Shown: positions 3,001 to 18,941, counted from the first letter of the stretch. The stretch: 64,000 nt of DNA from an uncultured Actinomycetes bacterium (GCA_903878415.1 CAIRHO010000004.1:44831-108830), one strand, 5' to 3'. Notes: a model not told the origin generated them from the letters alone. A program made the numbers and translations.

Positions 3001-6000
3001 GTGACAATTACAGCCACAGTCGGTCAAGCTGGTGCTGTTAATTTCAAAGTTGGTGGAAGTTCTATCAGTGGTTGCTCTGCAGTATCTTCGAGCGCAGGGA
3101 CCGCAACCTGTTCTTGGACGCCGGCGGCTGTTAATGCGTCAACTGCGCTCACCGCCGTTTTGACTCCAACTGATGTTACATACGCTTTGGTAACTTCAGC
3201 TACATTAACTATTAACGTAGGTAAAGCGACGCCGGTGATTACGTGGACAACACCGTCCCCAATTCGCCCTTCGGTAACTCTTTCAAGTACACAGCTTTCA
3301 GCGACTGCTTCGGTTGCTGGAACATTTGCATTTACCCCAGCAAGTGGAGATAGTGTTACAACGGGTACCGTCGAACTCTCTGCGACATTTACACCAACAG
3401 ATACAACTAATTATGAAGCAGTTATAACCACAAGAAACCTTGTTGTTCTAGGTGCAATTTCTCCAGGTGCACCCACATCACCAGTTGCCACTACTCCCGG
3501 ATCTGGTTCAGGAACCTTAGATCTCAGTTGGACAGCACCCACAGATGACGGTGGTGCCGTAATTGATAACTATGAATACAGAATCGCACTTTATGACGAA
3601 AGTTCTTTGTCGTGGAGTGACTGGACCACCGCAGCAACAGCTTCAACCAGTAAAAGTATTTCTGGATTGGGAAAGCACAAATATTACGTAATACAAATTC
3701 GCGCGCATAACAGCGCCGGCTACAGCACTGCTTCAACAACAAGCACTAAGAGCTACTCATCAGGAACTGAAGTAACAATATTTGCCGCACCAACAAACGT
3801 GCTGGCGGTATTTACTGCATCAACTGGAAATACAAAGGTCAATTTCACTCCACCAGTTGGTGCAACCGATTCAACAAATTACCAATATTCAACTGATGAT
3901 GGAGTCTCATGGAAGTCAGTCTCTGTAACCTCAGATGGTGATACTAAAAAGCAATTCACTCTCAGCGGTTTAACAAAAGGCACGACTTATAAAATTAAAG
4001 TGCGTGGACTAAATGAAGCCGGAAATGGTTCCGAAAACACTGCGTACACACTAACGCCAGTGTCAGCGCCGAACACTCCCACTATTGATTCAGGTACGCC
4101 AAGCAGCGGAAAAATTACTGTAGTTTTTAGTACTTCAACTGATACTGGCGGTCAAGCCGTCACGTATCAATACCGAACCGCCGAAGAAGGCTCGTGGGTA
4201 AACGTCCCTTCAAACCTGTCGCCGTTTGAAATTACATCAATAAGCAATGATCAAAGCTATCCAATTCAGATGCGAGCCCGCAATGCAACGGGAGATAGCA
4301 ATCCGACTTCAGCGACTGTTGTAAATGCTATCCGCGCAGGCTCAGCAACTATCAGGACACAACCATCGGACACTTCATTAACAAATGGACAAACTGCAGG
4401 TTATTCATTGACAGTGAGTGCAACGGCATCGAGTGATCGAGACACACTCTCCTATCAGTGGTACAAAAATTCCGAAGCAATTTCAGGCGCAACGGCGGCG
4501 ACTTACACAGTATCGGGTCCAATAACTACAAGTAATGCTGGAACCTTTTATGTAATAGTGACAGCTACGGCGAACGGGACTTCGTTAACAACTCAGTCAA
4601 ACAATGCAGTTGTGACCGTGAATGCAGCCCCAAGCATTACATCGAGTGCGCTGGCTGGCGCAACTAAAGGTTCGGAATACTCAGCGACTTTGGCTGGTAC
4701 TGGTGGCGTACCCTCTTATACATTCTCGGTTGTAAGTGGTTCTCTTCCAACTGGATTAACTCTATCGTCAGGAACAATTTCAGGAACTGTTTCAAATACT
4801 GTAACAACCGGCACTAAAACAATTGCTGTGACAATTACCGACTCAAAGGGAGTTTCGACTACTGCAAATGTAACCATTGTAGTTTCAGCGAGTATTTCGA
4901 TTACCACGAGTTCATTAGGGTCGGCCTCTAAAGGCTCTGCATACTCAGTCACACTTGCTGCATCTGGCGGAAATGAAACATACACATGGAGCTTGGGAGA
5001 AGATTCTGAATTACCGAGCGGCCTAACCCTTGCTGGTGCAACCGGAGTTATCTCTGGCACCCCTACGAACGCAGCATCATCGAAGACTTTTACCATTCGA
5101 GTAACTGATGGAAACCGAGCAACTACGACTTCGCGTTTCACAATCAATATAACCTCAGCAGTGCCTAATGCCCCAACTTCCCTTACTGCCACAAGTGGAG
5201 ATAAGTCAATTGTTTTAGCATGGACCGCTCCAACTGCTGTTACGGGAGTAGTTATAACTAACTACATTATTAACTTTATTAAACCAAAAGGTGAACACAA
5301 CGACGATGGTGGCGATGATGATGAAGAAAAAGGATCTGTATCAATCTCAGCTCCTGCAACTTCTTATACGTTAACGGGATTAAAGAATGGTTTGAGTTAC
5401 ACAGTTACAGTGAGTGCGAAAAGCTCAGGTGGAACCGGAACCGCATCTAATTCGGCTACAGCTGTAACAGCGGGTAAAGCATCGGCCCCAACATCTGTTA
5501 CAGCCGGAGTAGTTAAAACTGGAATTTCCGTCCGGTGGAAAAAACCAGAAGATAACGGAGGCAAAAACGTTACTTCATGGAAGGCCGAGTGTCTAAACAC
5601 AACTACTTCAGTTGCTATTACTAAGACTGTTTCTTCGCCAGATCGCAGCGATGGTGATGAAAACCAATATCGTTACACGCTTTTAAAGGCAGAACTGACT
5701 GCCGGCGCTTCCTACAAGTGCCGAGTTCTAGGAACTACCTCAAATGGCGATGGCTCATGGAGTTCTTATAGTTCAACAATTGTTTTCGCTACAGTTCCAT
5801 CTACTCCAGGAACAATCACCACTGATACAACCACTGGAGGAAAAGTAGTTGTGAGTTGGTTGGCATCATCCGATGATGGTGGTAGCCCAATTACAAGTTA
5901 TTCAGCTTGGATTTATAAAAAGAAGGATGGGGAGAGTGAAGAGAGTGATAGCAAGAGAACGTGTACTTCTACCCCTGCAGCGCTAACTTGCACATTAGTG

Positions 6001-9000
6001 GGAGTGCCCACCAAGGGAACATTCAATGTTTATGTCTCAGCAGTTAATGAGCTTGGTGAATCTGAAACACCAGCTATTAAGAACGTAATCATCACAGGAA
6101 AAACCCAAACCATCTCAAAACCATCAATTTCTGGGAAGAAGGTAGGTGACGCAGATTTTAATTTTGGTGTTACTAACTCATCTGGTTTAAAACTTGTTTA
6201 TAGCGTCGTATCTCCTTATTCATCAGTCTGCTCAATAAGCTATAAAGGCGTAGTTCATATTAAGATTGCTGGAACGTGTCGCATCAATTACAGTCAGGAC
6301 GGCCATCGAAAGAAGGAAGATGATTCTGACGACGGAGATTCTGAATATGAACCAATAACACCAGACTATGTAGAGTTTTCCATCGCAGACAGAGCACCAA
6401 CTGTTCCCACCATAACCTCAGTGACAATCGGCAATACGCAGCTCACTCTCAACTGGAGTGCTCCTTCTAACTCTGGTGGCATTCAAACAGGATACGAAGT
6501 CCAGTCGGCAACAAATGCAAGCTGTGCAACAACTTGCATTTGGTCTTCAAGTCTTACTCCAGCAGCAGATGCCCTATCTCAAGTTTTTGGTTCTCTAACA
6601 AATGGAATCGCCTACCAACTTCGAATACTTGCTAAGAATGCAGGCGGATCCTCAGCATGGGTAGTCGCAAGCTCTACCTACACCCCTTACACAGTTCCAA
6701 ATAAACCGGTAATAACAAATCCGATAACCGGTGTAGCTGCAACATCAACGGTAACAGTGGCCTGGAGCGCAGTTACGTCTAATGGTTCCTCAGTAACTAG
6801 CTATGTAATTTCTGGTACAGCAACCGGACTACCAGATAAAACTTGCACGGTAGGCGGATCCACCACATCTTGCGCAATCACGGGAATTCAAAATGACAAT
6901 ACTTATTCATTTACGATGGTTGCAAAGAATGCAGCGGGAACTAGTGCAGTTTCAGATCCTCAAACTATTAAATTAGCAGCAATTGCACAATCAATTACAG
7001 TCACATCGGTTCCTTCTATTTACGGTTGGACAGTGGGGGACCCAGACCTTCAAATCAATGCAAGTGCGAACAGCGGCCTTCCTTTGCAATGGTCGATTAA
7101 CGATTCATCAGTATGTTCAGTAACTTCTTCAGGAAACGTACACTTTAAAATTGCAGGCACATGTGAAGTTTATATAAAGCAAAATGGTAAAGATGCTTCT
7201 GGCAATGCAACAAAATATGCTGCAGCTACAGACGCCACGCCAATTCAATTGGTAATTGAAGCAGCAACACCTTCTGCACCAACTATTACATCAGTGACTA
7301 ATGATCCAAGCGGTCTTGTAATTGTGTGGAGTGCACCTTCTCGCGTGGGCGGAGGAACAATCTATTACAACCTCTCGGGTGTAAATGGTGGTTCAACAGT
7401 TACATGTGTTGAAACAGCTAGTTTGGGTTGCACCATAAACAGCGTAACAAAAGGCCTTTCCTATGCCTTTACTGTTACGGCTCGCAACACTGCTGGAACA
7501 GGATCTGCTTCAAACACCGTATATGGCACATGGATGACTGTGCCGTCAGTACCAATTGCAGGAACCGCAACTTCAATTGCAAATGCTTCTAATGGTAAAT
7601 CGCTGGATATATTTTGGAAGAAGAGTGTTAATGATAATGGTTCGGCCATTAGTCGATACGTAGTTAGCGCTTCTTCTGCCGGATACACAACTCAAACATG
7701 TTCGGTGAATCGCGATGATTCGATCACGACTGGGGATTACTCCTGCACCGTTCAAAACTTACGCGCTGGTGTCAGCTATGCAGTTTCTGTTGTTGCTAAA
7801 AACTCAGTTGGTGATAGTTCTGCATTATCTATTGGCAATATCATTCCTGGTCTGTCACAAACAGTCACAGTCTCAACACCAATATCTAAATTCATAGGTA
7901 ACAGTGACTTTACGTTAACGGCAACTGCTACTTCTGGTGGTGCTTTAACATTTGCAACTTCCGATAGTACCTGCACGGTGGTATCGGGCACTGGACTAGT
8001 TCATATAGTTTCTGTTGGAACATGTACCGTCACGGCAACTCAAGCCGGAGCTACGAATTCTGACGATTCAATGTATAAGTCCGCATCTGCAAATTCTGTA
8101 ATCACAATTTCAGCAGCTGCGCCAGGTAAAGCCACGATCACTAAAGTGGTAGGCGGCGACACTAAACTTACAATTACTTGGACCAACCCTACATTTACTG
8201 GTGGGGCTACATTAACTCAAGAAGTAACCGCGACTGCGAGTGAAACTGCCACAAGGACCTGTACTACAAGTCCATCAGCAACTACTTGCGAAATTACTGG
8301 TTTAACTAACACGGTCACCTACACATTGGTTGTAAAGGAAATAAACACCGCAGGCAATAGCCTGTCTGATTCAGCTGAAGGTGTGCCATTTTTGAACTCC
8401 CGAGCCCCAATGCCAATAACTGCAACGGGCGGGATCCGCGAAGTAGCCCTCACGTGGGTAGCACCTGCAGAGTATGAAGTTGGTTACAGCCTGCACCACT
8501 ATGTAATTTATAAAGATAATGTTGTTTGGCTAACAACAAGTGATAGTTCTACGGTTTCAGCAACAGTTTCGGGTTTAGCGAACTTCACAACGTATTCATT
8601 TAAAGCCAGAGCGGTAGTAGTTAAAAATGCTGACGCTACTGTCTTTTTAGATGGCGACTTTACGTCTATAGCAACAGCAAAAACACTCAATGTACCTTCG
8701 GCACCCTCTTCATTAGGTGTGACTGCGACTAGTACAACCTTGGCAGTTTCTTGGAATACACCAGAAGCAGATGGTGGTTCATCAATTCTTTCATATGTTG
8801 CTTCTGCAACTGCGGCCAGTGTTACAACTTCCTGTCCAGCAACTGCGCCTGCAAGAACTTGCACAATAACAGGATTGACACTTGGAACTACATACGCGAT
8901 ATCAGTTACGGCAACAAATGCTGTTGGAACTGGAAGTGCTCTAACTGGAAGTCAAGCAACTACTGCCGCTCCCACAGCCCCTGAATTAGTTTCAGCAGTA

Positions 9001-10677
9001 GGCACAGCATCAAACGGCACGGTATTAGTGAGTTGGAATTTGGTTGCCGATCCCGTGGGGGCACCAGTAACTAGTTATTTAGTGACTGCTTATACATCCT
9101 CCGGTGGGACTGCATTTAAATGTTCGGCTTCTGCAACAAGTACTAGCTGTACGGTTTCTGGCATTGCCTACAAAACCGATTACACATTTAAAGTTGTTGC
9201 TCGCAATACGGCCGGATCTAGCCCTGATTCAAATACTTCTTCAGTCGTTAATCTAGTAATTGCCCAAAGCATTACTTTTGATATGGCCGCTTCTGCAGGA
9301 TTTAACGTGGGTTCTATTGTTCTAACAGCAAGTGCAAGTTCAGGCCTTGCTGTCACCTATACAGTTTCAACTGCAAGCATTTGCAGTGTCTCCGGATCAA
9401 CTTTGACATTTATAGCAGTCGGAACTTGCACTGTAAGCGCCTCACAAAACGGTGCTGATTCCAACTATTCAGCAGCTACCCCAGTACTTGATTCAATTGA
9501 AGTAACTGCTGTTACGCCACCAGCAATTGCACTATCTCAAGTTGCACCGGGTGCATCGAAATTAACAGCAACATGGAGCGCGGCAACTCAATTCGGTGGA
9601 TCTACACTTTCTGGATACGTACTTAGTTGGGCACAAAATGCAGATTTCTCTGATGAGAATTCAGCAACCGTCTCAGGTACTACAAGTGTTATTAATGGGC
9701 TTTTAGCAAAGACTACTTATCGCGTTCGTATAAAAGTTGTAACTACCGCGGGTACCTCTAGCGGTTGGAGCAACGTCCTGGTCGGTACCACTTTTGGTTT
9801 ACCCGCAGCTCCAACTATAGGCACTCCATCATTTACGACACCTGGAGTCGTCACAGTGAATTGGACTAACGTGCCAACTGCTGACAACGGTGGAACACCA
9901 GTTACCGGTTACACAGCTGAGGCATATAACAATGCAACCTCGCTTGCCACAGGTTTTACTTGTTCAGCAGCATCTAGCACGTGCGACATTTCAGGTTTAA
10001 ACGGAGCGCTTACCTATTTCTTTAAAGTAACTGCCACCAATGCCGTTGGAAGTGCAACTTCGGCGGCAAGTGATACCAAACAACCTGGCACAGCACAAAC
10101 AATCACGCCAGGAAACATGAGTGTTACCCATGCATATAACCCATTCTTAGAAACATCGACAACAACCTCAGGCCTGCCACTGCTTTTTACAAAATTAGCG
10201 GACACGCCAACATCCTCCTATGCGCAAACTGGTTGGGGAACTGGCCGAACAGTGTGTTCTGTTACTTCTAGTGGAACAGTAACCGTTGATCTAGCCGGAG
10301 TTTGTACGATAACCGTTAGCCAAGATGGAACTGACAGCGGTTCCCCAACTCAGTATTTTGCAGCAACATCAGTTGTAACAACTGTGACAGTTGCAGCAAC
10401 TGCACCGAGTGTTGTTACAGGATTGACTCTTACACCTGATGACGGAAAAGTAACCGCAACTTGGTTAGCGTTAACTAATGACGGCGGTGCACCAATTATT
10501 TCTTACTTACTAAACTGGTATAAGTCGGGGACTTCACGCTCAGATGATTCTCATGGTGCGGCAACGGTAACAGCACCAACTCTTAGTTATCTTGTCACCG
10601 GATTAACGAATGGAACAACATACACATTTGAAATTCAGGCGGTCAATAAGGCTAATCTAACAGGCGCAATCCTGTGA
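1..10677 (+). CDS. Giant secreted/cell-surface repeat protein, 5'-truncated by the window edge (over 3557 aa). It has about two dozen fibronectin type III-like domains interleaved with bacterial Ig-like (Big), He_PIG/cadherin-like, I-set-like and two-cysteine Ig-like modules.
   Basis: ORF 4..10677 is uninterrupted, has no start codon in the window, and ends with TGA at 10675-10677. An FN3 signature recurs about every 85-100 aa: P-x-A-P-T boundary, W-x-x-P, DGG/NGG-x-[IV]-x-x-Y, then Y-x-[FV]-x-[VI]-x-A-x-N. The protein is T/S/A/G/V-rich with very few charged residues. I saw no LPXTG motif and no C-terminal TM helix. Confidence 0.9.
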   Translation, partial: AVSSGTVTTTFSVSSGSPSSFQYSTDAGSTWATKSTTLSSSVYTMVITKLSSDGTTDLVNGTTYPIQLRGVNSYGNGFASSSSNQAPGAAPSAPTSLIVSPGNLQATVSWTAPTNVNGYAVSGYKTEYSTNNTSWTTASSNTASATTSYTFTGLSNGSSYYFRVSAINSKGTSSTLSSSSSQKIGVPSDPTITGITPGDNTLSVAFTAPTSTNGASITNYEYSTNNGSTWSTRSPTSTSSPLVISSGVSNGTTYTVAIRAVNSNGSGVTSNLVQAVPANSVVAPAAPTISSITAGNTQASVVFTPGSDGGASITNYKYSINGGSTWVTPSPAVTSSPLVITGLTNGTSYSISIKAVNSAGDGAAATAVSVVPATTPGAPTSVTLTAGDSAFDVSWIAPSSNGGNAVKSYKVEYLPVSGSWTTAISNTGSTNLTYTVTGLSAATSYSFRVSAINDMGTGSASTASSVTVAVTVPGAPTITSIVGTYQQLNINFTVPTSDGGSSIIDYEYSTDNGTNWDAIGSTANPIQTNTESDGVTTLSNKSYSVKIRAVNAVGHGAASSMVTGTPNSATKLGITTQPSTVANGATMSSVVVKVQDSGSSTVTSSAAQISVSIASGSGSFCDGVTTTVTASSGIATFSTLCVIGTIGSYTLNFTADGLTDTTSNSFTLSVGSATKVVVTRASAGTASGAAFTTQPQVTIQDSGGNTVTGSSAVVTATISAGGTLEGTKTATASSGIATFSDLGITGTAGTPYTITYTGAGGLTIATASVTVTVGSATKLAVTRAPAGTASGATFTTQPQVTMQDSGGNTVTSSNAVVTATISAGGTLEGTKTATASSGIATFSDLGISGTAGTEYTITYGGALGITVATATVTVTAGSGSTLSITTSASGAAAHAAFTTQPVIQLKDSGGNNISTSGVTVTATLSSGTFSSGSSTATATSSSGVATFSGLQLNTVGSVTITYSVAGYSSSANQSLSVSTGTTTNSIALTGAATTAKYATAVTITATVGQAGAVNFKVGGSSISGCSAVSSSAGTATCSWTPAAVNASTALTAVLTPTDVTYALVTSATLTINVGKATPVITWTTPSPIRPSVTLSSTQLSATASVAGTFAFTPASGDSVTTGTVELSATFTPTDTTNYEAVITTRNLVVLGAISPGAPTSPVATTPGSGSGTLDLSWTAPTDDGGAVIDNYEYRIALYDESSLSWSDWTTAATASTSKSISGLGKHKYYVIQIRAHNSAGYSTASTTSTKSYSSGTEVTIFAAPTNVLAVFTASTGNTKVNFTPPVGATDSTNYQYSTDDGVSWKSVSVTSDGDTKKQFTLSGLTKGTTYKIKVRGLNEAGNGSENTAYTLTPVSAPNTPTIDSGTPSSGKITVVFSTSTDTGGQAVTYQYRTAEEGSWVNVPSNLSPFEITSISNDQSYPIQMRARNATGDSNPTSATVVNAIRAGSATIRTQPSDTSLTNGQTAGYSLTVSATASSDRDTLSYQWYKNSEAISGATAATYTVSGPITTSNAGTFYVIVTATANGTSLTTQSNNAVVTVNAAPSITSSALAGATKGSEYSATLAGTGGVPSYTFSVVSGSLPTGLTLSSGTISGTVSNTVTTGTKTIAVTITDSKGVSTTANVTIVVSASISITTSSLGSASKGSAYSVTLAASGGNETYTWSLGEDSELPSGLTLAGATGVISGTPTNAASSKTFTIRVTDGNRATTTSRFTINITSAVPNAPTSLTATSGDKSIVLAWTAPTAVTGVVITNYIINFIKPKGEHNDDGGDDDEEKGSVSISAPATSYTLTGLKNGLSYTVTVSAKSSGGTGTASNSATAVTAGKASAPTSVTAGVVKTGISVRWKKPEDNGGKNVTSWKAECLNTTTSVAITKTVSSPDRSDGDENQYRYTLLKAELTAGASYKCRVLGTTSNGDGSWSSYSSTIVFATVPSTPGTITTDTTTGGKVVVSWLASSDDGGSPITSYSAWIYKKKDGESEESDSKRTCTSTPAALTCTLVGVPTKGTFNVYVSAVNELGESETPAIKNVIITGKTQTISKPSISGKKVGDADFNFGVTNSSGLKLVYSVVSPYSSVCSISYKGVVHIKIAGTCRINYSQDGHRKKEDDSDDGDSEYEPITPDYVEFSIADRAPTVPTITSVTIGNTQLTLNWSAPSNSGGIQTGYEVQSATNASCATTCIWSSSLTPAADALSQVFGSLTNGIAYQLRILAKNAGGSSAWVVASSTYTPYTVPNKPVITNPITGVAATSTVTVAWSAVTSNGSSVTSYVISGTATGLPDKTCTVGGSTTSCAITGIQNDNTYSFTMVAKNAAGTSAVSDPQTIKLAAIAQSITVTSVPSIYGWTVGDPDLQINASANSGLPLQWSINDSSVCSVTSSGNVHFKIAGTCEVYIKQNGKDASGNATKYAAATDATPIQLVIEAATPSAPTITSVTNDPSGLVIVWSAPSRVGGGTIYYNLSGVNGGSTVTCVETASLGCTINSVTKGLSYAFTVTARNTAGTGSASNTVYGTWMTVPSVPIAGTATSIANASNGKSLDIFWKKSVNDNGSAISRYVVSASSAGYTTQTCSVNRDDSITTGDYSCTVQNLRAGVSYAVSVVAKNSVGDSSALSIGNIIPGLSQTVTVSTPISKFIGNSDFTLTATATSGGALTFATSDSTCTVVSGTGLVHIVSVGTCTVTATQAGATNSDDSMYKSASANSVITISAAAPGKATITKVVGGDTKLTITWTNPTFTGGATLTQEVTATASETATRTCTTSPSATTCEITGLTNTVTYTLVVKEINTAGNSLSDSAEGVPFLNSRAPMPITATGGIREVALTWVAPAEYEVGYSLHHYVIYKDNVVWLTTSDSSTVSATVSGLANFTTYSFKARAVVVKNADATVFLDGDFTSIATAKTLNVPSAPSSLGVTATSTTLAVSWNTPEADGGSSILSYVASATAASVTTSCPATAPARTCTITGLTLGTTYAISVTATNAVGTGSALTGSQATTAAPTAPELVSAVGTASNGTVLVSWNLVADPVGAPVTSYLVTAYTSSGGTAFKCSASATSTSCTVSGIAYKTDYTFKVVARNTAGSSPDSNTSSVVNLVIAQSITFDMAASAGFNVGSIVLTASASSGLAVTYTVSTASICSVSGSTLTFIAVGTCTVSASQNGADSNYSAATPVLDSIEVTAVTPPAIALSQVAPGASKLTATWSAATQFGGSTLSGYVLSWAQNADFSDENSATVSGTTSVINGLLAKTTYRVRIKVVTTAGTSSGWSNVLVGTTFGLPAAPTIGTPSFTTPGVVTVNWTNVPTADNGGTPVTGYTAEAYNNATSLATGFTCSAASSTCDISGLNGALTYFFKVTATNAVGSATSAASDTKQPGTAQTITPGNMSVTHAYNPFLETSTTTSGLPLLFTKLADTPTSSYAQTGWGTGRTVCSVTSSGTVTVDLAGVCTITVSQDGTDSGSPTQYFAATSVVTTVTVAATAPSVVTGLTLTPDDGKVTATWLALTNDGGAPIISYLLNWYKSGTSRSDDSHGAATVTAPTLSYLVTGLTNGTTYTFEIQAVNKANLTGAIL
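1702..2937 (+). repeat. Four in-phase tandem 309-bp (103-aa) coding repeats, each encoding a Big/invasin-like Ig domain.
   Basis: Units lie at 1702-2010, 2011-2319, 2320-2628 and 2629-2937. Units 2 and 3 (GSATKVVVTRASAGTASGAAFTTQPQVTIQDSGGNTVT... and GSATKLAVTRAPAGTASGATFTTQPQVTMQDSGGNTVT...) are near-identical at protein level. They share an identical DNA core, attagcgctggtggaactcttgaaggaacaaaaaccgc. Confidence 0.85.
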
Positions 10678-13442
10678 TTTCTTTTTTCAAAAAAAGTATT
10701 TTTCTCGTTTTAATATTGGTTTTACTATCACCTTCCACTGCCCATGCCGACGTTGCTGATGCGACACCAATTGGGGCGCCGCAAAGTGTTAATAAACCAA
10801 CTGCAGTTTTGATTGCTGATACAACGGATGTAACAATTACATGGACAAAACTCACAGATGCCCAGTCATCCGGCAGTCCAGTAACTGGGTACCAAGCAGT
10901 TCCTTATTACGGTAGTGGTTTCACGACATTGGCGCTCAACTCATGCTCAACGGGGGCAACAGAGGATCACTGCACCGTTTCAGGGCTGGCATTTGGTGTT
11001 ACCTACCAATTCAAAGTACTAGCTACTAATAGTAATGGAACGTCGACTTCTGTTTTTAGTGATCCAGTTACTGCTCCACTTCAAACCCAAACAGTTTCTA
11101 TTACAGGCGCACCCAATTCATATACATACGGTTCCGCCGACTTTAAATTGGCCGCTACTGCAACTTCAGGATTAGCAGTTGCTTGGACAGCTTCACCATC
11201 TGCTACCTGCACTGTTGATTCAGATGGTTTTGTTCACTTCAAAATTGCAGGAACGTGCCGAGTAACCGCAACCCAGAGTGGTGTAGGAAGTTCATATTCT
11301 TCTGCATCAACCTATGTGGATGTGAGCGCCGGTATTTCATTATCAGTGACAATCGGCTCAGCTTCTAATGTGCAGGGCACCACCGCATCAGTTAGTGCGA
11401 CTTTCCCATATCCAGGTGAATCAGTTGCACCTTCTTTTTGTGTTTCGACATCAAATTCTGCAAGCACTTCGTGTTCCTTGCCAGGAGGTGTATCAATTGG
11501 AAGTCCTACCCCAGCTTTAATTACGGCTTCGAGCTCAAACGCAGTCTCTGCAGATATCACTGGGTTAACAGCAAATACAACCTACTATTTTTGGGCCATA
11601 GCGTCTGCATCAAGTCCAGCCGTGGCTAGTTCTACTAGTAGCTTTACGACAATTAGCGGACCATCAATTACTGCAACCGGCACTAACTCAGGAACTGTAA
11701 ATTCTGCTTTCACCATGACATTTACTGCAAGCGATGGCAGTGGAGATTACGTGACTTGGGATAAAGGCACTTTGCCCGCCGGCCTAACTTTTACTCCGGG
11801 CGTTAATTCATCGACACTTACAGGCACACCTACGGCTGCTGCAACCACACCAACTTGGGTTTCGGTAACTGACAGCGGTGGTCTATCGACCACTTATTCA
11901 TACACGATCACCATTGCACCTGTAGCAACAACTGCCCCTACGACACCTACGACACCCACAACACCTACGACACCCACAACACAAGTTACTACTCCCTCTG
12001 GCCCATCAGGCCAAGTAATTACCGTAACTAATCTTCCAGATCCTGCATTTGTTGGTGACTCAGATCTTCAATTAGATGCAGTGGCTAGTTCAGGGTTGCC
12101 AATTAGTTATCAATCAACTACTAGCAAAATCTGCACCATTTCAACGAGCGGCTTACTTAAAATTATTACTGTCGGTAACTGCTTATTGTCGTTATTACAA
12201 GCTGGAAATAGCTCTTATAACCCGGCAACCAAGAGCGTAATAATCAAGGTAGTTCACAAATTGCAAGTGGCCCTTGAAGAGTTCACCAACGTCCAAAGTA
12301 ACAGCACCACGGCAGTTGCAACTGCGCCTTGGCCTGGTGATGACACTTCAGTTAAGTTCTGTATCTCTTTGAGTGAATCAAAAAGTGATTGCACTGTGCC
12401 TTCAGGGGTTAGCATCAGTGATCTTGCTCCTACGACTATTACAAAGGATTCAGGCAGTGTTGTTACTGCAAACATAAGTGGGTTAAATCCTGCAACAAAC
12501 TACTTTGTTTGGGCAGTTGCAACGGTTGGTGATGAAGAGGTAACGAGTGGAATACGTAAACTCCATACCCCTTTGGGCCCAACCATTCTCTATGTAGGTA
12601 AAACTTCCTACCTCAAAACTGAACCTGTGCGTATTCAGTTCCGCGCAACCGGCGGCGCTCGCGGATTTAAAAACTGGAAAGGAACTGGATTCCCAACTGG
12701 AATCAAGTTAGTTGCACTCAATTCAATTTTTACCGCAACCGGAACTAACCTCAAAGCTGGAACATACATAGTCAGTGTCTCAGTTGCAGATAAGTCAGGC
12801 TCTACGAGCACGATAACTGTCCCACTTGTTATCTCAGGTGGTTTGATCGTTGGGCAACCTGAACAGGTTCAAGGCGCCACAACACAGTTGATTTCATCAA
12901 AATCAGTTCGAGTTTCCTGGCAACCACAAGATGATGCCCAAAAGTATGAAGTTACTCTTGCAAATAAAGTGGTGTGCTCGACAAGTGGAATTGAATGTGA
13001 AATTAAGCAGTTGCTTGGGCCTAAAGCCCAGATTGCAGTAACTGCGGTAAGTACAGAAGGTATTAAGTCACAACCAATACCAACTACTTATAGAGCGCCA
13101 GTTATTCCTATTGACATGGAAGTTGCTAACTTTGCCCTTAATTCAGCAGTTTTGAGCGCTAGCGATAAATCAAAAATCGCTTCACTAGCTAAAACCATTC
13201 AAACTCAAGGCTTCACATCAATCCAAGTTGCAGGTCACACCGACTCTCAAGGAAATGCCACTTTAAACAGCGCGCTTTCAAGAGCCAGAGCCGTGAGCAC
13301 CTTTAGCTATCTCAAGCAGATCTTGGCTAAGACACCAATCTCTGTCACTTTGCTAGCCGAAGGTGCGAGCTCGCCGGTGGGATCTAACACAACTGAAGAT
13401 GGCCGTGCAGCCAACCGCCGCGCTGTGCTCTCACTTAACTAA
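10674..13442 (+). CDS. Secreted multi-domain surface protein (922 aa): signal peptide, FN3-like, two-Cys Ig-like and He_PIG-like modules, a Pro-Thr linker, and a C-terminal OmpA-like peptidoglycan-binding domain.
   Basis: The GTG start at 10674 overlaps the TGA stop of the giant gene (GTGA). The N-terminus MISFFKKSIFLVLILVLLSPSTAHA/DV is a classic Sec signal. The C-terminus carries OmpA_C signatures (NFALNSAVL...VAGHTDSQGNATLNSALSRARA...DGRAANRRAVLSL). The module set [two-Cys Ig, FN3-variant, He_PIG] is duplicated internally. Confidence 0.9.
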   Translation: MISFFKKSIFLVLILVLLSPSTAHADVADATPIGAPQSVNKPTAVLIADTTDVTITWTKLTDAQSSGSPVTGYQAVPYYGSGFTTLALNSCSTGATEDHCTVSGLAFGVTYQFKVLATNSNGTSTSVFSDPVTAPLQTQTVSITGAPNSYTYGSADFKLAATATSGLAVAWTASPSATCTVDSDGFVHFKIAGTCRVTATQSGVGSSYSSASTYVDVSAGISLSVTIGSASNVQGTTASVSATFPYPGESVAPSFCVSTSNSASTSCSLPGGVSIGSPTPALITASSSNAVSADITGLTANTTYYFWAIASASSPAVASSTSSFTTISGPSITATGTNSGTVNSAFTMTFTASDGSGDYVTWDKGTLPAGLTFTPGVNSSTLTGTPTAAATTPTWVSVTDSGGLSTTYSYTITIAPVATTAPTTPTTPTTPTTPTTQVTTPSGPSGQVITVTNLPDPAFVGDSDLQLDAVASSGLPISYQSTTSKICTISTSGLLKIITVGNCLLSLLQAGNSSYNPATKSVIIKVVHKLQVALEEFTNVQSNSTTAVATAPWPGDDTSVKFCISLSESKSDCTVPSGVSISDLAPTTITKDSGSVVTANISGLNPATNYFVWAVATVGDEEVTSGIRKLHTPLGPTILYVGKTSYLKTEPVRIQFRATGGARGFKNWKGTGFPTGIKLVALNSIFTATGTNLKAGTYIVSVSVADKSGSTSTITVPLVISGGLIVGQPEQVQGATTQLISSKSVRVSWQPQDDAQKYEVTLANKVVCSTSGIECEIKQLLGPKAQIAVTAVSTEGIKSQPIPTTYRAPVIPIDMEVANFALNSAVLSASDKSKIASLAKTIQTQGFTSIQVAGHTDSQGNATLNSALSRARAVSTFSYLKQILAKTPISVTLLAEGASSPVGSNTTEDGRAANRRAVLSLN
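11937..11981 (+). repeat. Short tandem coding repeat (9-bp ccN-acN-aca units) encoding a (PTT)5 linker.
   Basis: The sequence cct acg aca cct acg aca ccc aca aca cct acg aca ccc aca aca translates to PTTPTTPTTPTTPTT. It sits between the He_PIG-like module and the second two-Cys Ig module. Confidence 0.8.
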
Positions 13443-13496: not shown

Positions 13497-15497
13497 CTAT
13501 TTAACGTACTTTCCAATTACTTCAGCTTGTAGCTTGCTGCCAAGTCTTGATAAATGGTCATCATCTAAATACAGCAAAGTCCCATTTTTTAAAAAGTTAC
13601 AAGATGTATCTGGGCAGAAAATATCTAAAGTATCAATAAAAGTAGCGCCACTAATATTTTGTAAAATGTTGCGATGCAGGCTCTGTCGATCAAGAACATG
13701 TGCTCGATTCCTTGGTTCACATTTTGCCTCAGTTTTCGCTCTAGCAACTCCAAAATCTAAGCAATTTTTTAAATCAAACGACAGCTCTGGATTTTCCGAT
13801 ACTAAATAAATCTGCTTTCCTTGTGATCGGTATAGATCAACCGTCTTCTGCAGCGCTTCTTGGAAGAGGGACGCCTTAGTTGCAGTGGATGGAATGGTTT
13901 GTTGCGAAGCTGGCCACTTCATGAATTTAACGTGGCGGATCGGAATCTCTTCATGTGCTGTTATGTAATAAGAGCCACGGGATATGAAAATTACGGTATC
14001 AATGCCTTTGGTATTCGTCATTGCATCAATAATTTGTTTTGTTGATTCGGTACATTCATTCAATTTTGGAATAGACATTCCTGTTGCAACACCAATAAAT
14101 GGGGGGCAGAGCGAATTAGAGAATAGGACGGTATTGATTCCTAATTTTCCGTAATAGTTTGATAGCCCAACCCAGGCCGCTTGCGCATGGGAATCTCCAG
14201 TAATTGCAATAGTGCGCGCGCCGCCTACATAGTTATATCTACAGTAATGAAATAGATGTTTTGGATTACCGATCAATTCACCGCAACCGGCATCGCTTCC
14301 AGGTGCTCTAACAAGTTGGATCATGTTGGCTTTAGATGTACCAACTCGATTTTCTACACCATTGCTTACTTGAATTCCGATTCCTAACAATGCGATTACG
14401 ACTAGCCCAACCAGAAGCGCGATAATTTTTTTAAACTCGTGCGCTTTACTCCGCATGTGCACTTCTAGTAAGCGATAACAACCGTAAGAGAGCGCAATAC
14501 TTAAAATCACACTTAATCCTCGCGCTAATTTTGGCGGAGTTCCAGTGAAGTACATGTAGCCAAAAGAGAGAAAAATCCAATGCCAGAGATAGAGCGGATA
14601 ACTGATTAGACCAATCCAAACTGAGATTGGGTTACCTACTAATTTTGATGTGAAGGTCGGTTTTGCGCCAAAAAGAATTAATCCAGCGGAACTAAGAACA
14701 CCGATCAATACTGTGAGCAATGATCGCTTCTCCGTTCCGAAGTAGAGCGCAACCAACATTGCAAATAACGACATTGCAGCAGCGAGCTCTACTGCAAATC
14801 TATAGCTATGTATTTTTTCTATGACTTTGTAATGGTAAACAAAAGCAAAAGCAAGCGCTGCGCCAACCAACAACTCCCAAAATCTTGGTGCTGGTGAGTA
14901 GAAAGCTAAATCCGGGTTGAGGTATCGGTAATGGTATGCAGTATAAAAAGACGCAACTAACATCACTCCAGTCAGGGCAAATGCGTATTTTCGAACTTTA
15001 AATAATATGAAAAGAATTAGCGGCCAAAGCAAATAAAACTGCTCTTCAATACTTAGCGACCAAAGGTGCAATAATGGCTTTTGAATTGCATCAGCATCAA
15101 AATATCCAACTTGGCTCCACAGTACAAAGTTAGTTATAAACACAGTTGCGCCAGCAGTAACTCTTCCTAATTGCACATAATCTTGTGGCAACAATAAAAA
15201 CCAACCCAAAATCAAAGTTGTTGCTAAGACAACAAGCAAGCTAGGAATAATGCGGCGAATTCGGCGAGAATAAAAGTTTCTTATCTTAAATTTTCCAGCA
15301 TCAATTTCATTAATAATGATTTGGGTTATTAAGAATCCGGAAATAACAAAAAAGATATCTACACCTATAAAACCACCAGTAAGTCGCTTAGGAAAAGCGT
15401 GGAAAGCAATAACGCTAAGCACCGCAATAGCGCGGATCCCATCAATATCTGGGCGGTAAAAATGGGGCTTAGGTAAAGGCATGTGGCATTTTGGCAT
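13497..15497 (-). CDS. Acyltransferase family 3 (OafA/YrhL-like) membrane O-acyltransferase with a C-terminal SGNH-like extracytoplasmic domain.
   Basis: The N-terminal DIDGIRAIAVLSVIAFH motif and about 10 predicted TM helices are followed by a roughly 280-aa soluble tail, the typical AT3-SGNH architecture. The ORF extends to a TTG at 15533, 2 nt from the tRNA at 15536. ATG 15497 (MPKCH...) or ATG 15482 (MPLPKP...) is the more plausible start. Confidence 0.8.
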   Translation of the reverse strand: MPKCHMPLPKPHFYRPDIDGIRAIAVLSVIAFHAFPKRLTGGFIGVDIFFVISGFLITQIIINEIDAGKFKIRNFYSRRIRRIIPSLLVVLATTLILGWFLLLPQDYVQLGRVTAGATVFITNFVLWSQVGYFDADAIQKPLLHLWSLSIEEQFYLLWPLILFILFKVRKYAFALTGVMLVASFYTAYHYRYLNPDLAFYSPAPRFWELLVGAALAFAFVYHYKVIEKIHSYRFAVELAAAMSLFAMLVALYFGTEKRSLLTVLIGVLSSAGLILFGAKPTFTSKLVGNPISVWIGLISYPLYLWHWIFLSFGYMYFTGTPPKLARGLSVILSIALSYGCYRLLEVHMRSKAHEFKKIIALLVGLVVIALLGIGIQVSNGVENRVGTSKANMIQLVRAPGSDAGCGELIGNPKHLFHYCRYNYVGGARTIAITGDSHAQAAWVGLSNYYGKLGINTVLFSNSLCPPFIGVATGMSIPKLNECTESTKQIIDAMTNTKGIDTVIFISRGSYYITAHEEIPIRHVKFMKWPASQQTIPSTATKASLFQEALQKTVDLYRSQGKQIYLVSENPELSFDLKNCLDFGVARAKTEAKCEPRNRAHVLDRQSLHRNILQNISGATFIDTLDIFCPDTSCNFLKNGTLLYLDDDHLSRLGSKLQAEVIGKYVK

Positions 15498-15535
15498 AAA
15501 GAAGAAAATCGGTAGGCTTCCGACAATCTCCAAAT

Positions 15536-15608
15536 GCGCCTGTAGCTCAACGGATAGAGCATCTGACTACGGATCAGAAGGTTAGGGGTTCAAATCCCTT
15601 CAGGCGCA
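15536..15608 (+). tRNA. tRNA-Arg (anticodon ACG).
   Basis: A manual cloverleaf fold works. The acceptor is GCGCCTG/CAGGCGC plus discriminator A. The D arm is GCTC-AACGGATA-GAGC. The anticodon arm is TCTGA-CTACGGA-TCAGA, with ACG at 15569-15571. The T arm is AGGGG-TTCAAAT-CCCTT. The gene is 73 nt and CCA is not encoded. Confidence 0.93.
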
Positions 15609-15617
15609 CTCAGATAT

Positions 15618-17030
15618 CTAAGAATCAAAGCCCAATCCAACTCGATCTAAAATTCTTAACCAGATATTTCGGTGTCCGCCATTTTGATCAGCTCGGTTAA
15701 TCGACCATTGCGTAAGCCGAATAAATAAGAATCTAAAAGGTTCTGGTGGAAATGGAATCGGTTTATGTTTCACCATTTGCAATTCAGTTGCTTCAGTTTC
15801 ATTTCCGTCTAACAGATCCAACATGGTTGATGCACCAAACCTTGTAGAAGCAACGCCAAGACCGGTATATCCAAGTACATATGCGACGTTGCCGCTAAAC
15901 GCAGTTCCCCAGAATGGCGAGAATCGACTGCAGGTATCAATTGCACCGCCCCACCCATGAGTAAATTTAATTCCAGTCAATTGCGGGAATGTCTTTAAGA
16001 AGCTTTCAGCTAACTTTGCATAAGTTTCAGGCTGAAATTCATATTCCTGTCGAACTTTGCCGTGATAGTTATAAATGGCATCATAACCGCCCCAAAGAAT
16101 TTCATTCTCTTTAGTTAAGCGGTAATAGTGGAATTGGTAACCAGCATCAGAAACACCCTCACGACCAGTCCAACCAATACTTGCTAATTGTTCCGGGGTT
16201 AAAGGTTCAGTTACTAATTGAAAGTCATAAACTGCAACTACATACTTACGTAAACTTTTGATGAGGGGTGTAAAAATATTAGTGGCAAGCGCAACTTTAT
16301 TTGCCCGAACTTTTCCGTAAGCAGTATGAACAATTATTTGCTCGCCATCTTCTTCAAGTTCTTCCACGCGTGAATTTTCATAAATTTTCACACCGAGTGA
16401 AAGACAAGCTTTCTCTAAACCCCAAACTAAACGAGCTGGATCAACCAGCGCGGTTCCATCGGCATCAAAGAGGCCCCCTTCGTACAATGGTGAATTAACG
16501 CGCTTGCGAATTTCTGCTTTAGTTAATACTTCAACATGGTCGCCGGTGTTATTGCGTTGTATCGCTTCTTCTTTCAGCCCTTCAAATTGCCATGGCGCAA
16601 CCGCAACTCTTAATTCACCAGTCCGCTCAAAATCACAATCGATGTTGTATCGCTTAATGGTTTCTTCAATGGCATCAAGGTTTTCTCGACCCAACTTATC
16701 AATCGTTGCCATCTCGTCTGGAAACCGGGTGTAACCGTTAACGAATCCATGAGTTAGTGACGCGTTGCAAAAACCACCGTTACGCCCAGAAGCGCCAGCG
16801 CCAGTTTCGCGTTGCTCGATAATTACAACTTCGCGATTAGGATTTTTTTCTTTTGCGAGGAGTGCGCTCCATAAACCGGTGTAACCCGCGCCAACAATGC
16901 AGAGGTCGGTGGTAATTTCACCAATAAGCGCTGAGTGCGAATCTGGTTCGAGCGGGTCAGCATCCAACCAATAAAGTGCTGGTTGCAGATCGGCTAAATG
17001 TTTAAGAATGAATGGGTCGATGGGGGCCAT
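15618..17030 (-). CDS. FAD-dependent oxidoreductase (DAO family; gamma-glutamylputrescine oxidase or amine/amino-acid oxidase-like).
   Basis: The protein is 470 aa. It has an N-terminal dinucleotide-binding motif (CIVGAGYTGLWSALLLAKE-type GxGxxG) and DAO-family length and layout. Confidence 0.75.
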   Translation of the reverse strand: MAPIDPFILKHLADLQPALYWLDADPLEPDSHSALIGEITTDLCIVGAGYTGLWSALLAKEKNPNREVVIIEQRETGAGASGRNGGFCNASLTHGFVNGYTRFPDEMATIDKLGRENLDAIEETIKRYNIDCDFERTGELRVAVAPWQFEGLKEEAIQRNNTGDHVEVLTKAEIRKRVNSPLYEGGLFDADGTALVDPARLVWGLEKACLSLGVKIYENSRVEELEEDGEQIIVHTAYGKVRANKVALATNIFTPLIKSLRKYVVAVYDFQLVTEPLTPEQLASIGWTGREGVSDAGYQFHYYRLTKENEILWGGYDAIYNYHGKVRQEYEFQPETYAKLAESFLKTFPQLTGIKFTHGWGGAIDTCSRFSPFWGTAFSGNVAYVLGYTGLGVASTRFGASTMLDLLDGNETEATELQMVKHKPIPFPPEPFRFLFIRLTQWSINRADQNGGHRNIWLRILDRVGLGFDS

Positions 17031-17185: not shown

Positions 17186-17821
<636 letters not shown>

Positions 17822-17840: not shown

Positions 17841-18941
17841 TTAGTGCTTTCCGATATTTGCTTTAACGATACGTGGCGTGAAATTCCACAATGATTTTGA
17901 CCGCGGGTCAATTGTTAATTCAACCCAATGATTGAAACCAGACCCGAAAGTTTGGACGCGAGTGAAGTTCTCTACCAAAGTTCCCTTGTCTTTCTCCACG
18001 AGCTTTCCAGCAGTTTCATTCATAGGCATATCGAGTTGGTACCAATGTTCGTCTCCATTTTGAAGAAGAACCGGCTTTCCAAATTTCAATGTATTTGTAA
18101 GAAGTGCTTGTTTTGTAGCAGCATATGCAGCAGTAAATTCGTTATTTGGTACTGTTAAATCACGAAGATAACCTTCCCAATCCATATTTGCTTGCAACAG
18201 AACGATTACGCCTAAGGAACCATCTGTAGTTGCTTTGGTAAAACCCTTGTTAATCCAAGCGACATTCGCTGCGTCGCGCGCTTTATATTCCAAATCATTT
18301 CCATCTGTAGCTGTGTCGTTATATGTTTTATATGTTGGTGTGGCGACAGCTGCATTATTAGCAGATCCAGGTACGTGAGGAATAATGAAAGTAATTCCCT
18401 TATAAGAGAACATTTGCATCTCAGGGTAAACAGAATCTCGAGTTATTTGTGGAACGCTTCCACGAAATTTTCCACCGAGGTTAATGTATGATTTGTCCGC
18501 CTTTTGGAAGTAAGTAGAGCGAACCAATGCCAATCTTGTTGCTGGATCATAAGCGCCTTTTACTGCACGATCACAGTCAACCCATTCATTATCTCCCACA
18601 GTGTAAAAAATTGGACGTGTAAATTTGTCGAAGAAGTCGGTCTTGATAACGCCATAAGCGGCATCAGTACATTTATCGCCTTTCCCTGACATTGTGTCGC
18701 CGCTAAATAGCGTGAAATCAATATTACTTTGGGCGTTGATTTCGTTTACAACGTTTGGAACTTCGGATACACCTTTGGCGTCATACGGCATGTCACCAAT
18801 CAAGGCAAGAGTAAATTTCTGTGCGGAATTAGCCGCGTTAGCGGTTAGAGAAGATGAAATACCGGTGCCTAAAATTAAGGCAGCGATCAGCGATACGCCG
18901 ATTATGCGCGTAGATCTAAACTTCAAAGTAATATTTTTCAT
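17841..18941 (-). CDS. Secreted metallophosphoesterase-like (calcineurin-like) protein.
   Basis: It has an N-terminal signal peptide (IGVSLIAALILGTGISSSLTANA) and motifs LIGDMPYD, SGDTMSG and VGDNEW, which resemble metallophosphoesterase metal-binding blocks in divergent form. The assignment is tentative. Confidence 0.5.
   Translation of the reverse strand: MKNITLKFRSTRIIGVSLIAALILGTGISSSLTANAANSAQKFTLALIGDMPYDAKGVSEVPNVVNEINAQSNIDFTLFSGDTMSGKGDKCTDAAYGVIKTDFFDKFTRPIFYTVGDNEWVDCDRAVKGAYDPATRLALVRSTYFQKADKSYINLGGKFRGSVPQITRDSVYPEMQMFSYKGITFIIPHVPGSANNAAVATPTYKTYNDTATDGNDLEYKARDAANVAWINKGFTKATTDGSLGVIVLLQANMDWEGYLRDLTVPNNEFTAAYAATKQALLTNTLKFGKPVLLQNGDEHWYQLDMPMNETAGKLVEKDKGTLVENFTRVQTFGSGFNHWVELTIDPRSKSLWNFTPRIVKANIGKH

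Follow-up and report, generated by a model that had tools for sequence, protein, structure and literature searches.

A Giant FN3/Ig-Repeat Protein and an OmpA-Domain Partner Encoded Side by Side in Freshwater acI-Type Actinobacteria: A Possible Two-Gene Cell-Envelope Module

A 64,000-nt stretch of DNA from an uncultured Actinomycetes bacterium (GCA_903878415.1, CAIRHO010000004.1:44831-108830; hereafter the window) carries two genes that meet in a 4-nt overlap. The first encodes a giant secreted protein (the giant) built of FN3 and Ig repeats, and the second a protein of 922 amino acids (aa; the partner) that has its own signal peptide and ends in an OmpA-like domain (OmpA_C). The two genes stay together in diverged relatives, and we propose that in freshwater Actinobacteria of the acI type (Planktophila/Nanopelagicales-like) they make up a conserved cell-envelope module of two genes, in which the partner holds the giant, a proposal that we consider evenly balanced when taken as a whole. 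Its parts differ in strength: that the pair is a functional envelope module with a peptidoglycan-bound partner is probable, and that the partner tethers the giant is at best an even matter and perhaps somewhat less. An initial annotation, made from the window alone, had read the pair as a fibril and its anchor; the linkage, the anchor domain and the anchorless giant on which it relied all stand, but its claim of rarity is weakened.

Conservation of the Gene Pair and of Its Junction

The two genes and the site at which they meet are as follows.

1 to 10677, plus strand: giant secreted FN3/Ig-repeat protein, at least 3,558 aa in the window, N-terminus upstream of the window
10674 to 10677, plus strand: GTGA start/stop overlap (giant TGA at 10675-10677, partner GTG at 10674-10676)
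10674 to 13442, plus strand: partner protein, 922 aa, made of a signal peptide, FN3, a set of Ig, FN3-like and He_PIG modules, a Pro/Thr-rich (PT) linker, a second set of Ig, FN3-like and He_PIG-like modules, FN3, and the OmpA-like domain

The overlap described in the initial annotation is confirmed by reading the sequence: the junction runs ...atcctGTGAtttc, its core is ctGTGAtt, and the GTG at 10674 is the first possible start past the in-frame upstream stop. No promoter-like site was found between the two genes in the window. Overlaps of 4 nt, ATGA or GTGA, are an ordinary operon arrangement; this one goes beyond chance because a tight junction recurs in diverged relatives. We recovered contigs starting from either gene, using partner homologues or giants, which gave a sample of eight lineages on metagenomic contigs with a GC content of 0.43-0.49. 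The window and 14 other contigs, which represent eight lineages out of eight, all have the giant and partner genes side by side on the same strand, with partners ~32-99% identical. The lineages are listed below with the identity of their partner to that of the window, where available, and the spacing at the junction (negative values are overlaps).

P0001: 96% identity, contig L001, -4 nt
P0007: 50% identity, P0007 contig, +53 nt
P0008: 43% identity, contig L083, +8 nt
P0009: ~44% identity, contigs L085-L087, -1 nt
P0010: ~35% identity overall, contig L002, -4 nt
P0014: ~32% identity, contigs L088 and L089, -4 nt
P0285 giant (L090), then a 905-aa fn3+OmpA protein: -4 nt
P0309 giant (L091/L092), then a 783-aa fn3+OmpA protein: -11 nt

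Across the eight lineages the junction thus falls into five classes (-4, -1, -11, +8 and +53 nt). GTGA recurs in L001, L093 and L094, ATGA is found in L002, L088/L089 and L090, TAATG (-1 nt) in L085 and an 11-nt overlap in L091, so that stop and start overlap or abut in 6/8 lineages; an 8-nt gap in one more (L083) brings those with an overlapping or near-touching junction to 7/8, the last having a gap of 53 nt (P0007 contig).

The genes that flank the pair vary by lineage (Pyr_redox_2 and a 5'-nucleotidase; GerE; IMPDH; Pribosyltran, VTT and an H+-PPase; in the window, an AT3 acyltransferase and a tRNA-Arg). Since the pair is kept while its surroundings change, it travels as a unit, and no further conserved gene, chaperone and usher genes included, accompanies it in the contexts examined. 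A metagenome scan with the N-terminal half of the partner, dominated by generic FN3 patterns, returned just two loci, L093 and L094, both of the same species and with the GTGA kept, and a contig scan keyed on the generic OmpA GRAANRR motif returned 80 loci, all of which encode ordinary OmpA-domain proteins and none a full-length relative of the partner. Among the eight lineages, whose contigs were selected via one of the genes, we found no unlinked giant or partner gene: every context recovered, from whichever gene, shows adjacency. The pairing, on whose conservation the initial annotation made its reading depend, therefore holds up in relatives. Within the pair, the conserved parts are the C-terminal 2,000-2,500 aa of the giant, the N-terminal ~415 aa of the partner and the C-terminal FN3 and OmpA-like domains of the partner, and the variable parts are the N-terminal region of the giant and the second Ig, FN3-like and He_PIG set of the partner.

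A 5-bp hairpin (ACAGG/CCTGT, 10660-10675) covers part of the partner GTG and is followed by a T-run (region 10660-10690). It is conserved in same-species contigs only, and we rejected it as a coupling, terminator or start-sequestering element (z -0.65 vs shuffled sequence; terminator-like sites are as numerous as in shuffled sequences on average).

The Partner Is a Multimodular Protein with a Sec-Type Signal Peptide

The partner can be divided into the following segments.

10674 to 10748, plus strand: Sec-type signal peptide (aa 1-25, cleavage AHA/D), from sequence inspection, predicted local distance difference test (pLDDT) below 50
10779 to 11333, plus strand: FN3 (two Cys) and Ig-like (two Cys) didomain (aa 36-220), from BLASTP to giant didomains
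11355 to 11918, plus strand: FN3-like module (PurAcP_N-type, two Cys) and He_PIG (aa 228-415), from Pfam and AlphaFold2 (AF2) strands
11919 to 12011, plus strand: Pro/Thr-rich flexible linker (aa 416-446), pLDDT below 50, sequence APVATTAPTTPTTPTTPTTPTTQVTTPSGPSG
12012 to 13097, plus strand: second Ig, FN3-like and He_PIG-like set (aa 447-722) and last FN3 (aa 733-808)
13107 to 13439, plus strand: OmpA-like (OmpA_C) domain (aa 812-922), from Pfam, a PDB profile and AF2

The N-terminus, MISFFKKSIFLVLILVLLSPSTAHA/DVAD (the slash marks cleavage), has the n-, h- and c-regions of a signal peptide, with a basic n-region and an AxA site. All partner homologues have equivalent AxA-ending signal peptides (AFG/A or FGA/D in L090), followed by a TPxGxP motif whose T and two P are invariant; like those of the giants, they were judged by eye. 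Fourteen homologues are of the full-length type (852-929 aa), and the AF2 model built on them has a mean pLDDT of 79. It places FN3 at 36-128, Ig at 137-220, the FN3-like module at 228-326, He_PIG at 330-415, a disordered linker at 416-446, the second set at 447-722, FN3 at 733-808 and the OmpA-like domain at 812-922, so that eight modules of the Ig/FN3 type precede the OmpA-like domain at the C-terminus. Pfam matches agree with this layout (fn3 at 48-128, E 6.5e-13; a Pur_ac_phosph_N-type FN3 at 277-326; He_PIG at 330-414, E 4e-5 and 24.4 bits vs a gathering threshold (GA) of 24), and neither Pfam nor AF2 gave a BON, transmembrane (TM) or enzymatic domain or a lipobox. The two sets are an internal duplication: residues 139-415 match 447-721 with 31% identity over 277 aa (E 5e-49).

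The segment up to aa ~415, comprising the FN3-Ig didomain and the FN3-like and He_PIG part, is conserved in all homologues, including those with an altered middle. In the P0010-P0014 and L090 partners the second set is replaced by other sequence, and the last FN3 stays alignable (W749, Y758 and V760 are invariant). The partner also reuses module types of the giant, as had been noted in the window: its didomain (35-216) matches residues 2245-2396, 2537-2696, 2990-3164 and 3284-3543, in the C-terminal third of the giant, with 32-41% identity (BLASTP, E 1e-11 to 3e-21), and its He_PIG region matches residues 1646-1762 (35% identity, 2.7e-6).

Two further observations concern these modules. The two-Cys Ig module of ~85 aa (giant ~2245-3543; partner 137-220 and 447-527) has the consensus SGLPV.W....CSVD.SG.V....G.C.V.A.Q.G...Y and recurs at 45-56% identity in many phyla, including in RHS-repeat and autotransporter proteins; it is widely shared and apparently mobile. 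The PT linker, made of TTP repeats, differs in length among strains that are 97-99% identical in DNA (window, L001, L093 and L094), whose partners measure 913, 922 and 925 aa, which suggests repeat slippage.

The C-Terminal Domain of the Partner Is of the OmpA_C Type

Pfam OmpA (PF00691) matches aa 820-915 over positions 2-98 of the 98-position profile (2.2e-11, 44.4 bits vs GA 27.2), above the threshold of the family, and the partners of L090 and L091 score 55.7 and 48.8 bits, respectively. A profile of the partner family retrieved solved OmpA-like domains from the PDB, in particular the C-domain of OprF (4e-21), YiaD (1e-18), Mycobacterium tuberculosis Rv0899/ArfA (5e-16) and Acinetobacter baumannii OmpA (1e-15), its matches spanning MotB, Pal, YfiB, TssL and ArfA. 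The motif GHTDSqGnatlNsaLSraRA...GRAANRR (GHTDSQGNATLNSALSRARA...GRAANRRAV) aligns column by column with PA0833-PD, YiaD, OprF and the OmpA family protein 7rjj, and D857, R872, N914, R915 and R916 are invariant across the 14 homologues. In A. baumannii OmpA, the Asp and Arg of the TD..G....N..LS..RA motif touch the carboxylate of diaminopimelate (DAP). AF2 predicts a beta/alpha sandwich (strands 813-820, 849-855, 890-894 and 916-921; helices 829-845 and 862-883) with block-mean pLDDT mostly of 66-90 and a minimum of 46 at residues 901-910. Judged by the profile match, the solved relatives, the motif residues and the predicted fold, the domain is a bona fide OmpA_C domain, as the initial annotation had it, and the partner may be expected to bind peptidoglycan through it.

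Complete Orthologues of the Giant Have Sec-Type Signal Peptides and No Recognizable Anchor

The window alone could not settle whether the giant lacks an anchor: bases 1-3 are gca, not a stop, and its open reading frame (ORF) is open from base 1 and cut by the 5' edge, so that the absence of an anchor had to be checked in complete orthologues. The visible part, at least 3,558 aa, gave 18 fn3 stretches in Pfam (E 2.6e-149) together with Ig_Rha78A_N and DUF4959, no anchor domain and, at E<0.01, no He_PIG call; its 34 Cys occur in pairs.

A search with the last 1,200 aa of the giant against 1.84 billion representative proteins identified orthologues that are colinear with it to their own C-termini (P0282-P0288, P0291, P0293, P0295, P0299, P0304, P0309 and P0365); a separate search with the last 700 aa gave only proteins of up to 1,225 aa (its length window being apparently ~0.55-1.75x the query). 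Complete orthologues measure 3,823 aa (P0285), 3,811 (P0287), 4,068 (P0295), 4,234 (P0309) and 2,926 (L085 giant), and a complete giant of 3,073 aa lies upstream of the partner on the P0007 contig. By BLASTP, P0283, P0285, P0287, P0295, P0309 and P0286 each align with the window giant in one colinear block of 2,000-2,700 aa, with 36-44% identity, that ends at the C-terminus, and orthologues share neither the order nor the content of the N-terminal 1,000-1,800 aa. This combination indicates a conserved stalk and a variable tip, the stalk lying as follows.

3193 to 10674, plus strand: colinear conserved stalk of the giant (aa ~1065-3558), common to all orthologues up to their C-termini

The complete orthologues P0285, P0287, P0295, P0309 and L085 have N-terminal Sec-type signal peptides with a basic n-region, a hydrophobic h-region and an AxA end, the cleavage sites being ASA/A, ANA/Y, ANA/V, AMA/L and AEA/S, without a lipobox Cys. 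In two complete orthologues Pfam found only fn3, Big_13, Gly_rich_2, Cadherin-like and Big_3_5, and none of the complete giant orthologues has a wall-binding Pfam domain, an LPXTG motif or a lipobox. Near the C-termini of giant and partner we found no LPXTG followed by a hydrophobic segment and a basic tail, as a sortase substrate would have; the sole LP.[TSA]G match is an internal LPVSG at aa 414 of the giant. The giants gave no RTX or type 1 secretion system (T1SS) Pfam match either, and their neighbors are unrelated metabolic genes, unlike what is expected of a T1SS RTX adhesin. The absence of an anchor, which had been proposed from the truncated window protein, thus holds in complete orthologues.

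Some gene models required correction. The public gene call of the L085 giant (P0286, ATG 455) is probably short by 41 N-terminal codons (L085:332-454); a TTG start at 332, behind an AAAGGA motif, yields the full signal peptide MFTLRSSRAKSHRNNVKWFTRIAAVLTPIQLVGALVVAAPAMA/LQAP, which has a long h-region of ~22 aa. An 852-aa "short giant" in L089 was rejected as a gene-calling artifact, because the contig end cuts the ORF. The L083 giant ORF is also cut by the contig end, and positions 1-19 of that public contig (ATGTGTATAAGAGACAG) are a leftover Nextera transposase adapter.

Composition was similar in the two proteins: Ser and Thr account for 29-32% of residues in giant and partner, and all Cys are paired, 4-43 residues apart (most 8-16), inside single modules. 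Both features fit proteins that are extracellular and possibly disulfide-bonded and glycosylated.

The Terminal FN3 Domain of the Giant Lacks a Normal G Strand

The last domain of the giant is shorter than those that precede it.

10402 to 10674, plus strand: terminal FN3 of the giant, without a normal G strand, ending after the FG turn

The window giant ends with ...TYTFEIQAVNKANLTGAIL followed by the stop, inside its last FN3, and ~15 of the 17 orthologue C-termini listed stop 1-6 residues past the FG turn of that domain (for example ...NKANLTGAIL, ...NSAGVGPES, ...NEANKIGPQS, ...NSAGIGPEL, ...NAIGTEGM, ...NSVGLGPESL and ...NRVGIGPIK). The exceptions, P0288 and P0299, continue for ~13 residues past the conserved Asn (...NKAYVDGVTGTLYGTP). 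In the window giant the Pfam fn3 match of this domain ends at position 72 of the 84-position profile with 7 residues left, and across giants the terminal matches end at positions 72-77 with 1-7 residues left, whereas internal control FN3 domains reach positions 78-82, with 13 or more further residues separating them from the domain that follows. For the last 200 aa, AF2 (pLDDT 81.6; predicted template modeling score 0.74) gives A, B, C, C', E and F strands, then one bridge residue and no G strand, which leaves the F-strand edge open in the model. The abrupt end noticed in the window is thus a family trait.

A Foldseek search with the last two domains returned generic Ig/FN3 tandems only, and no strand complementary to the terminal FN3 was identified in the mature N-terminus of the partner. 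We also rejected the idea that a single G strand is split over the end of the giant and the start of the partner: joining the two does not restore a normal strand length, as 6-10 residues separate the Gly of the FG turn from TPxGxP vs ~13 at an FN3-FN3 junction inside the L085 giant, counted by eye, which served as reference. It would nevertheless be conceivable, if improbable, that some segment of the OmpA-anchored partner completes the G-strand-less FN3 or pairs with its edge (beta-augmentation). Such docking would recall donor-strand complementation, but would join a Sec-secreted fibril to a peptidoglycan-bound base in a monoderm, giving a sortase-independent two-subunit fiber whose variable tip would be the strain-specific exposed part under phage or grazer selection.

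A Model for the Pair and Its Alternatives

In the model that we favor, the first gene would encode a Sec-secreted FN3/Ig chain of 2,900-4,200 aa or more, whose N-terminal tip differs between lineages, whose C-terminal stalk is conserved and which has no anchor of its own, and the second a separately Sec-secreted protein of 780-930 aa, with its start on or beside the stop of the first. The genes would be co-transcribed and, as their junction suggests, translationally coupled, the stop/start overlap fixing the ratio of the products, and both proteins would be exported. The OmpA-like domain, last out of the translocon, would bind peptidoglycan non-covalently near the membrane, while the eight modules of the partner (Ig/FN3 modules measure ~4 nm each) and its PT linker would reach across the thin wall and expose, at the N-terminus, an FN3-Ig didomain of the giant-stalk type. 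The conserved N-terminal half of the partner would engage the conserved C-terminal end of the giant, which, held in this way by the wall-bound partner, would extend from the cell surface as a long fibril, roughly 100-150 nm for 35-45 domains, with the variable tip at its far end.

Several points weigh against this model. The contact between giant and partner is its most inferential step: the module types that they share may merely reflect descent by duplication, and the mature partner has just 2-6 residues ahead of the conserved Pro-rich TPxGxP, too few for an obvious donor strand. OmpA-like domains typically recognize DAP-type stems, and their fit to acI peptidoglycan is not a given. The 53-nt gap in the P0007 lineage means that the start/stop overlap is not obligatory. 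Finally, the N-terminus of the window giant lies outside the window, and each contig was selected via one of the two genes, a procedure that would miss single-gene genomes and short contigs.

The most serious alternative, which we hold to be less likely, is that giant and partner are expressed together but act independently at the surface and never form a complex, the partner being a shorter paralogue of the C-terminal modules of the giant that gained an OmpA-like domain. The giant would then be shed, or kept by wall entanglement, by binding to wall glycopolymers or by an uncleaved signal peptide. The identity of only 32-41% between shared didomains is what old paralogues would show, and neither a donor strand nor a dedicated docking motif was found; the intergenic gap of one lineage also fits. 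As to retention, the ~22-aa h-region of the L085 giant could in principle remain in the membrane, but the giants have good AxA cleavage sites, and shedding a protein of 3,000-4,000 aa would presumably be very costly for a streamlined genome. Independence also leaves unexplained why the genes remain together in all eight lineages while their surroundings change and why the N-terminal half of the partner is conserved in spite of the replaced middle.

It is less probable still that the partner is a wall-associated structural or sensing protein, an ArfA- or Pal-like organizer or stabilizer of the thin wall, and that the giant is an unrelated cargo of the operon. The strict co-occurrence with the giant argues against it, as do the eight extracellular Ig-type modules and the PT linker of a protein that is without BON, TM, lipobox or enzymatic domain, even if OmpA-like domains serve roles as diverse as those of MotB, Pal, YfiB, TssL and ArfA and BON+OmpA proteins exist in other Actinomycetota. 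An artifact or a decaying locus, in which a frameshift or nonsense mutation had broken up one ancestral giant gene, or repeats had been misassembled, and the pair was a pseudogene, could account for a partner that continues the FN3-Ig pattern of the C-terminus of the giant and for the shortened last FN3. Yet neither frame is interrupted, over 10.7 and 2.8 kb, the split has the same position in eight lineages, and independent assemblies at 97-99% identity share the junction, while the second gene always opens with a complete signal peptide, which would make no sense inside a fusion. Given this conserved internal signal peptide and the agreement of independent assemblies, we exclude a split pseudogene for practical purposes.

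Comparison with Known Systems

Giant adhesins of the LPXTG type (MSCRAMM, CshA and SdrD types; Ebh of Staphylococcus aureus) combine a Sec signal, long Ig/FN3-type arrays, an N-terminus that varies and faces the ligand, and a C-terminus close to the wall. The pair resembles them in its Sec signal, Ig/FN3 arrays, variable N-terminus and putatively wall-proximal C-terminal end, but has no sorting signal or C-terminal TM segment, and the non-covalent wall-binding domain lies on a second secreted polypeptide. In the LapA/LapE-type and SiiE systems, too, a long fiber is held by a separate envelope component, the SiiAB component including an OmpA/MotB-like peptidoglycan-binding domain (in the MotB-like SiiA). 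The very long repetitive fiber and the separate, putatively surface-retaining component are common to these T1SS giant adhesin systems and our pair; those systems, however, belong to diderms, export their RTX/BIg-repeat adhesins by type 1 secretion and retain them by the N-terminus in a pore of the outer membrane, whereas both proteins of the pair have Sec signals and an actinobacterial host.

Like the partner, M. tuberculosis ArfA (Rv0899/OmpATb) comes from an actinobacterium and ends in an OmpA-like domain. ArfA, however, is anchored in the membrane at its N-terminus, contains a BON domain but no Ig/FN3 array, has no giant neighbor and belongs to a host with a mycomembrane; the partner, with a cleavable signal peptide in place of the anchor and no BON, does not belong to the ArfA family. 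The peptidoglycan-binding OmpA-like domain of ArfA has been solved and studied for peptidoglycan recognition (PMC6151718, citing Yao et al. 2012). A single-chain counterpart comes from a high-GC Actinomycetota metagenome-assembled genome (MAG), in which L003 (6773-10495) encodes a 1,241-aa protein with CshA_repeat, SdrD_B, Cadherin_5 and Big_9 modules and a C-terminal OmpA domain (3.3e-11). It shares with the pair the succession of surface-adhesin-type repeats and a C-terminal OmpA domain in the same phylum, and differs in being a single chain, with other repeat families, in a high-GC genome and without a giant upstream gene. This protein shows that surface-type proteins of the phylum can carry OmpA_C at their C-terminus. 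Together with BON+OmpA (ArfA-like) proteins in Kineosporiaceae and ArfA itself, it shows that the initial annotation overstated the case in calling an OmpA_C domain on a multi-Ig actinobacterial protein uncommon.

The likeness to chaperone-usher pilus subunits, namely a boundary Ig-like fold without its last (G) strand and neighboring genes, is an analogy only. The shortened fold of the giant lies at the extreme C-terminus of a protein of more than 3,000 aa, the partner has no recognizable N-terminal donor extension, and there are no chaperone or usher genes; of the features of a donor-strand fiber we found the G-strand-less Ig-type fold, but neither a complementary free strand nor chaperone/usher genes. 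Non-covalently wall-anchored repetitive surface proteins are thus the known part of the system, and what is distinctive is the location of the anchor on a separate, putatively coupled subunit and the truncated terminal FN3.

Host and Genomic Surroundings

The GC content of the window is 0.41-0.47, with 0.44-0.47 in the region of the giant and partner vs 0.41-0.44 across most of the remainder. Three housekeeping proteins encoded in the window have identical counterparts in freshwater metagenomes and "Actinomycetes bacterium" MAGs, and the 90% clusters of these three include Candidatus Planktophila sp. By these proteins the host, earlier taken for a putative actinobacterium, is indeed one, of the low-GC, genome-streamlined freshwater acI/Planktophila type; its monoderm status is deduced from the phylum. 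The acI/Nanopelagicales are dominant freshwater bacterioplankton with genomes below 1.5 Mbp (PMC12817590).

Downstream of the pair we identified the following genes.

13497 to 15533, minus strand: AT3+SGNH acyltransferase gene, convergent, downstream of the partner
15536 to 15609, plus strand: tRNA-Arg(ACG), directly adjoining the acyltransferase gene
15618 to 17030: FAD oxidoreductase
17186 to 17821: Rieske-domain protein
17841 to 18941, minus strand: 366-aa ORF, adjoining the Rieske-domain protein and the FAD oxidoreductase

The convergent acyltransferase gene and the tRNA-Arg indicate that the transcription unit ends with the partner gene. The best NCBIfam match of the acyltransferase, far under the cut-off, is the mycobacterial arabinogalactan succinyltransferase SucT; it is an enzyme of the wall-polymer-modifying type next to a pair of surface proteins. 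Pfam and NCBIfam searches with the 366-aa ORF gave no match. Additive genomic islands flanked by tRNAs have been reported in Planktophila (PMC12817590).

Significance for acI Actinobacteria

In the literature searched we found no work linking Nanopelagicales with OmpA-domain or FN3 giant proteins, an earlier mention remaining possible, and a major review of monoderm surface display contains no occurrence of OmpA domains (PMC5817068). The gene pair takes 13-16 kb, roughly 1% of an acI genome, and such an expense in a streamlined genome implies a strong selective value; the setting of that selection is likely the cell surface under grazing and phage pressure. Should giant and partner not interact, the pair would be one more operon of repetitive surface proteins. 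If, on the other hand, the partner is the wall-bound base of the giant, the pair would represent a sortase-free display of very long proteins in a monoderm by means of an OmpA-like domain, and the distinction between a conserved stalk and base and a variable tip would offer a handle on microdiversity and on interactions with phages and grazers in cultivated Planktophila strains.

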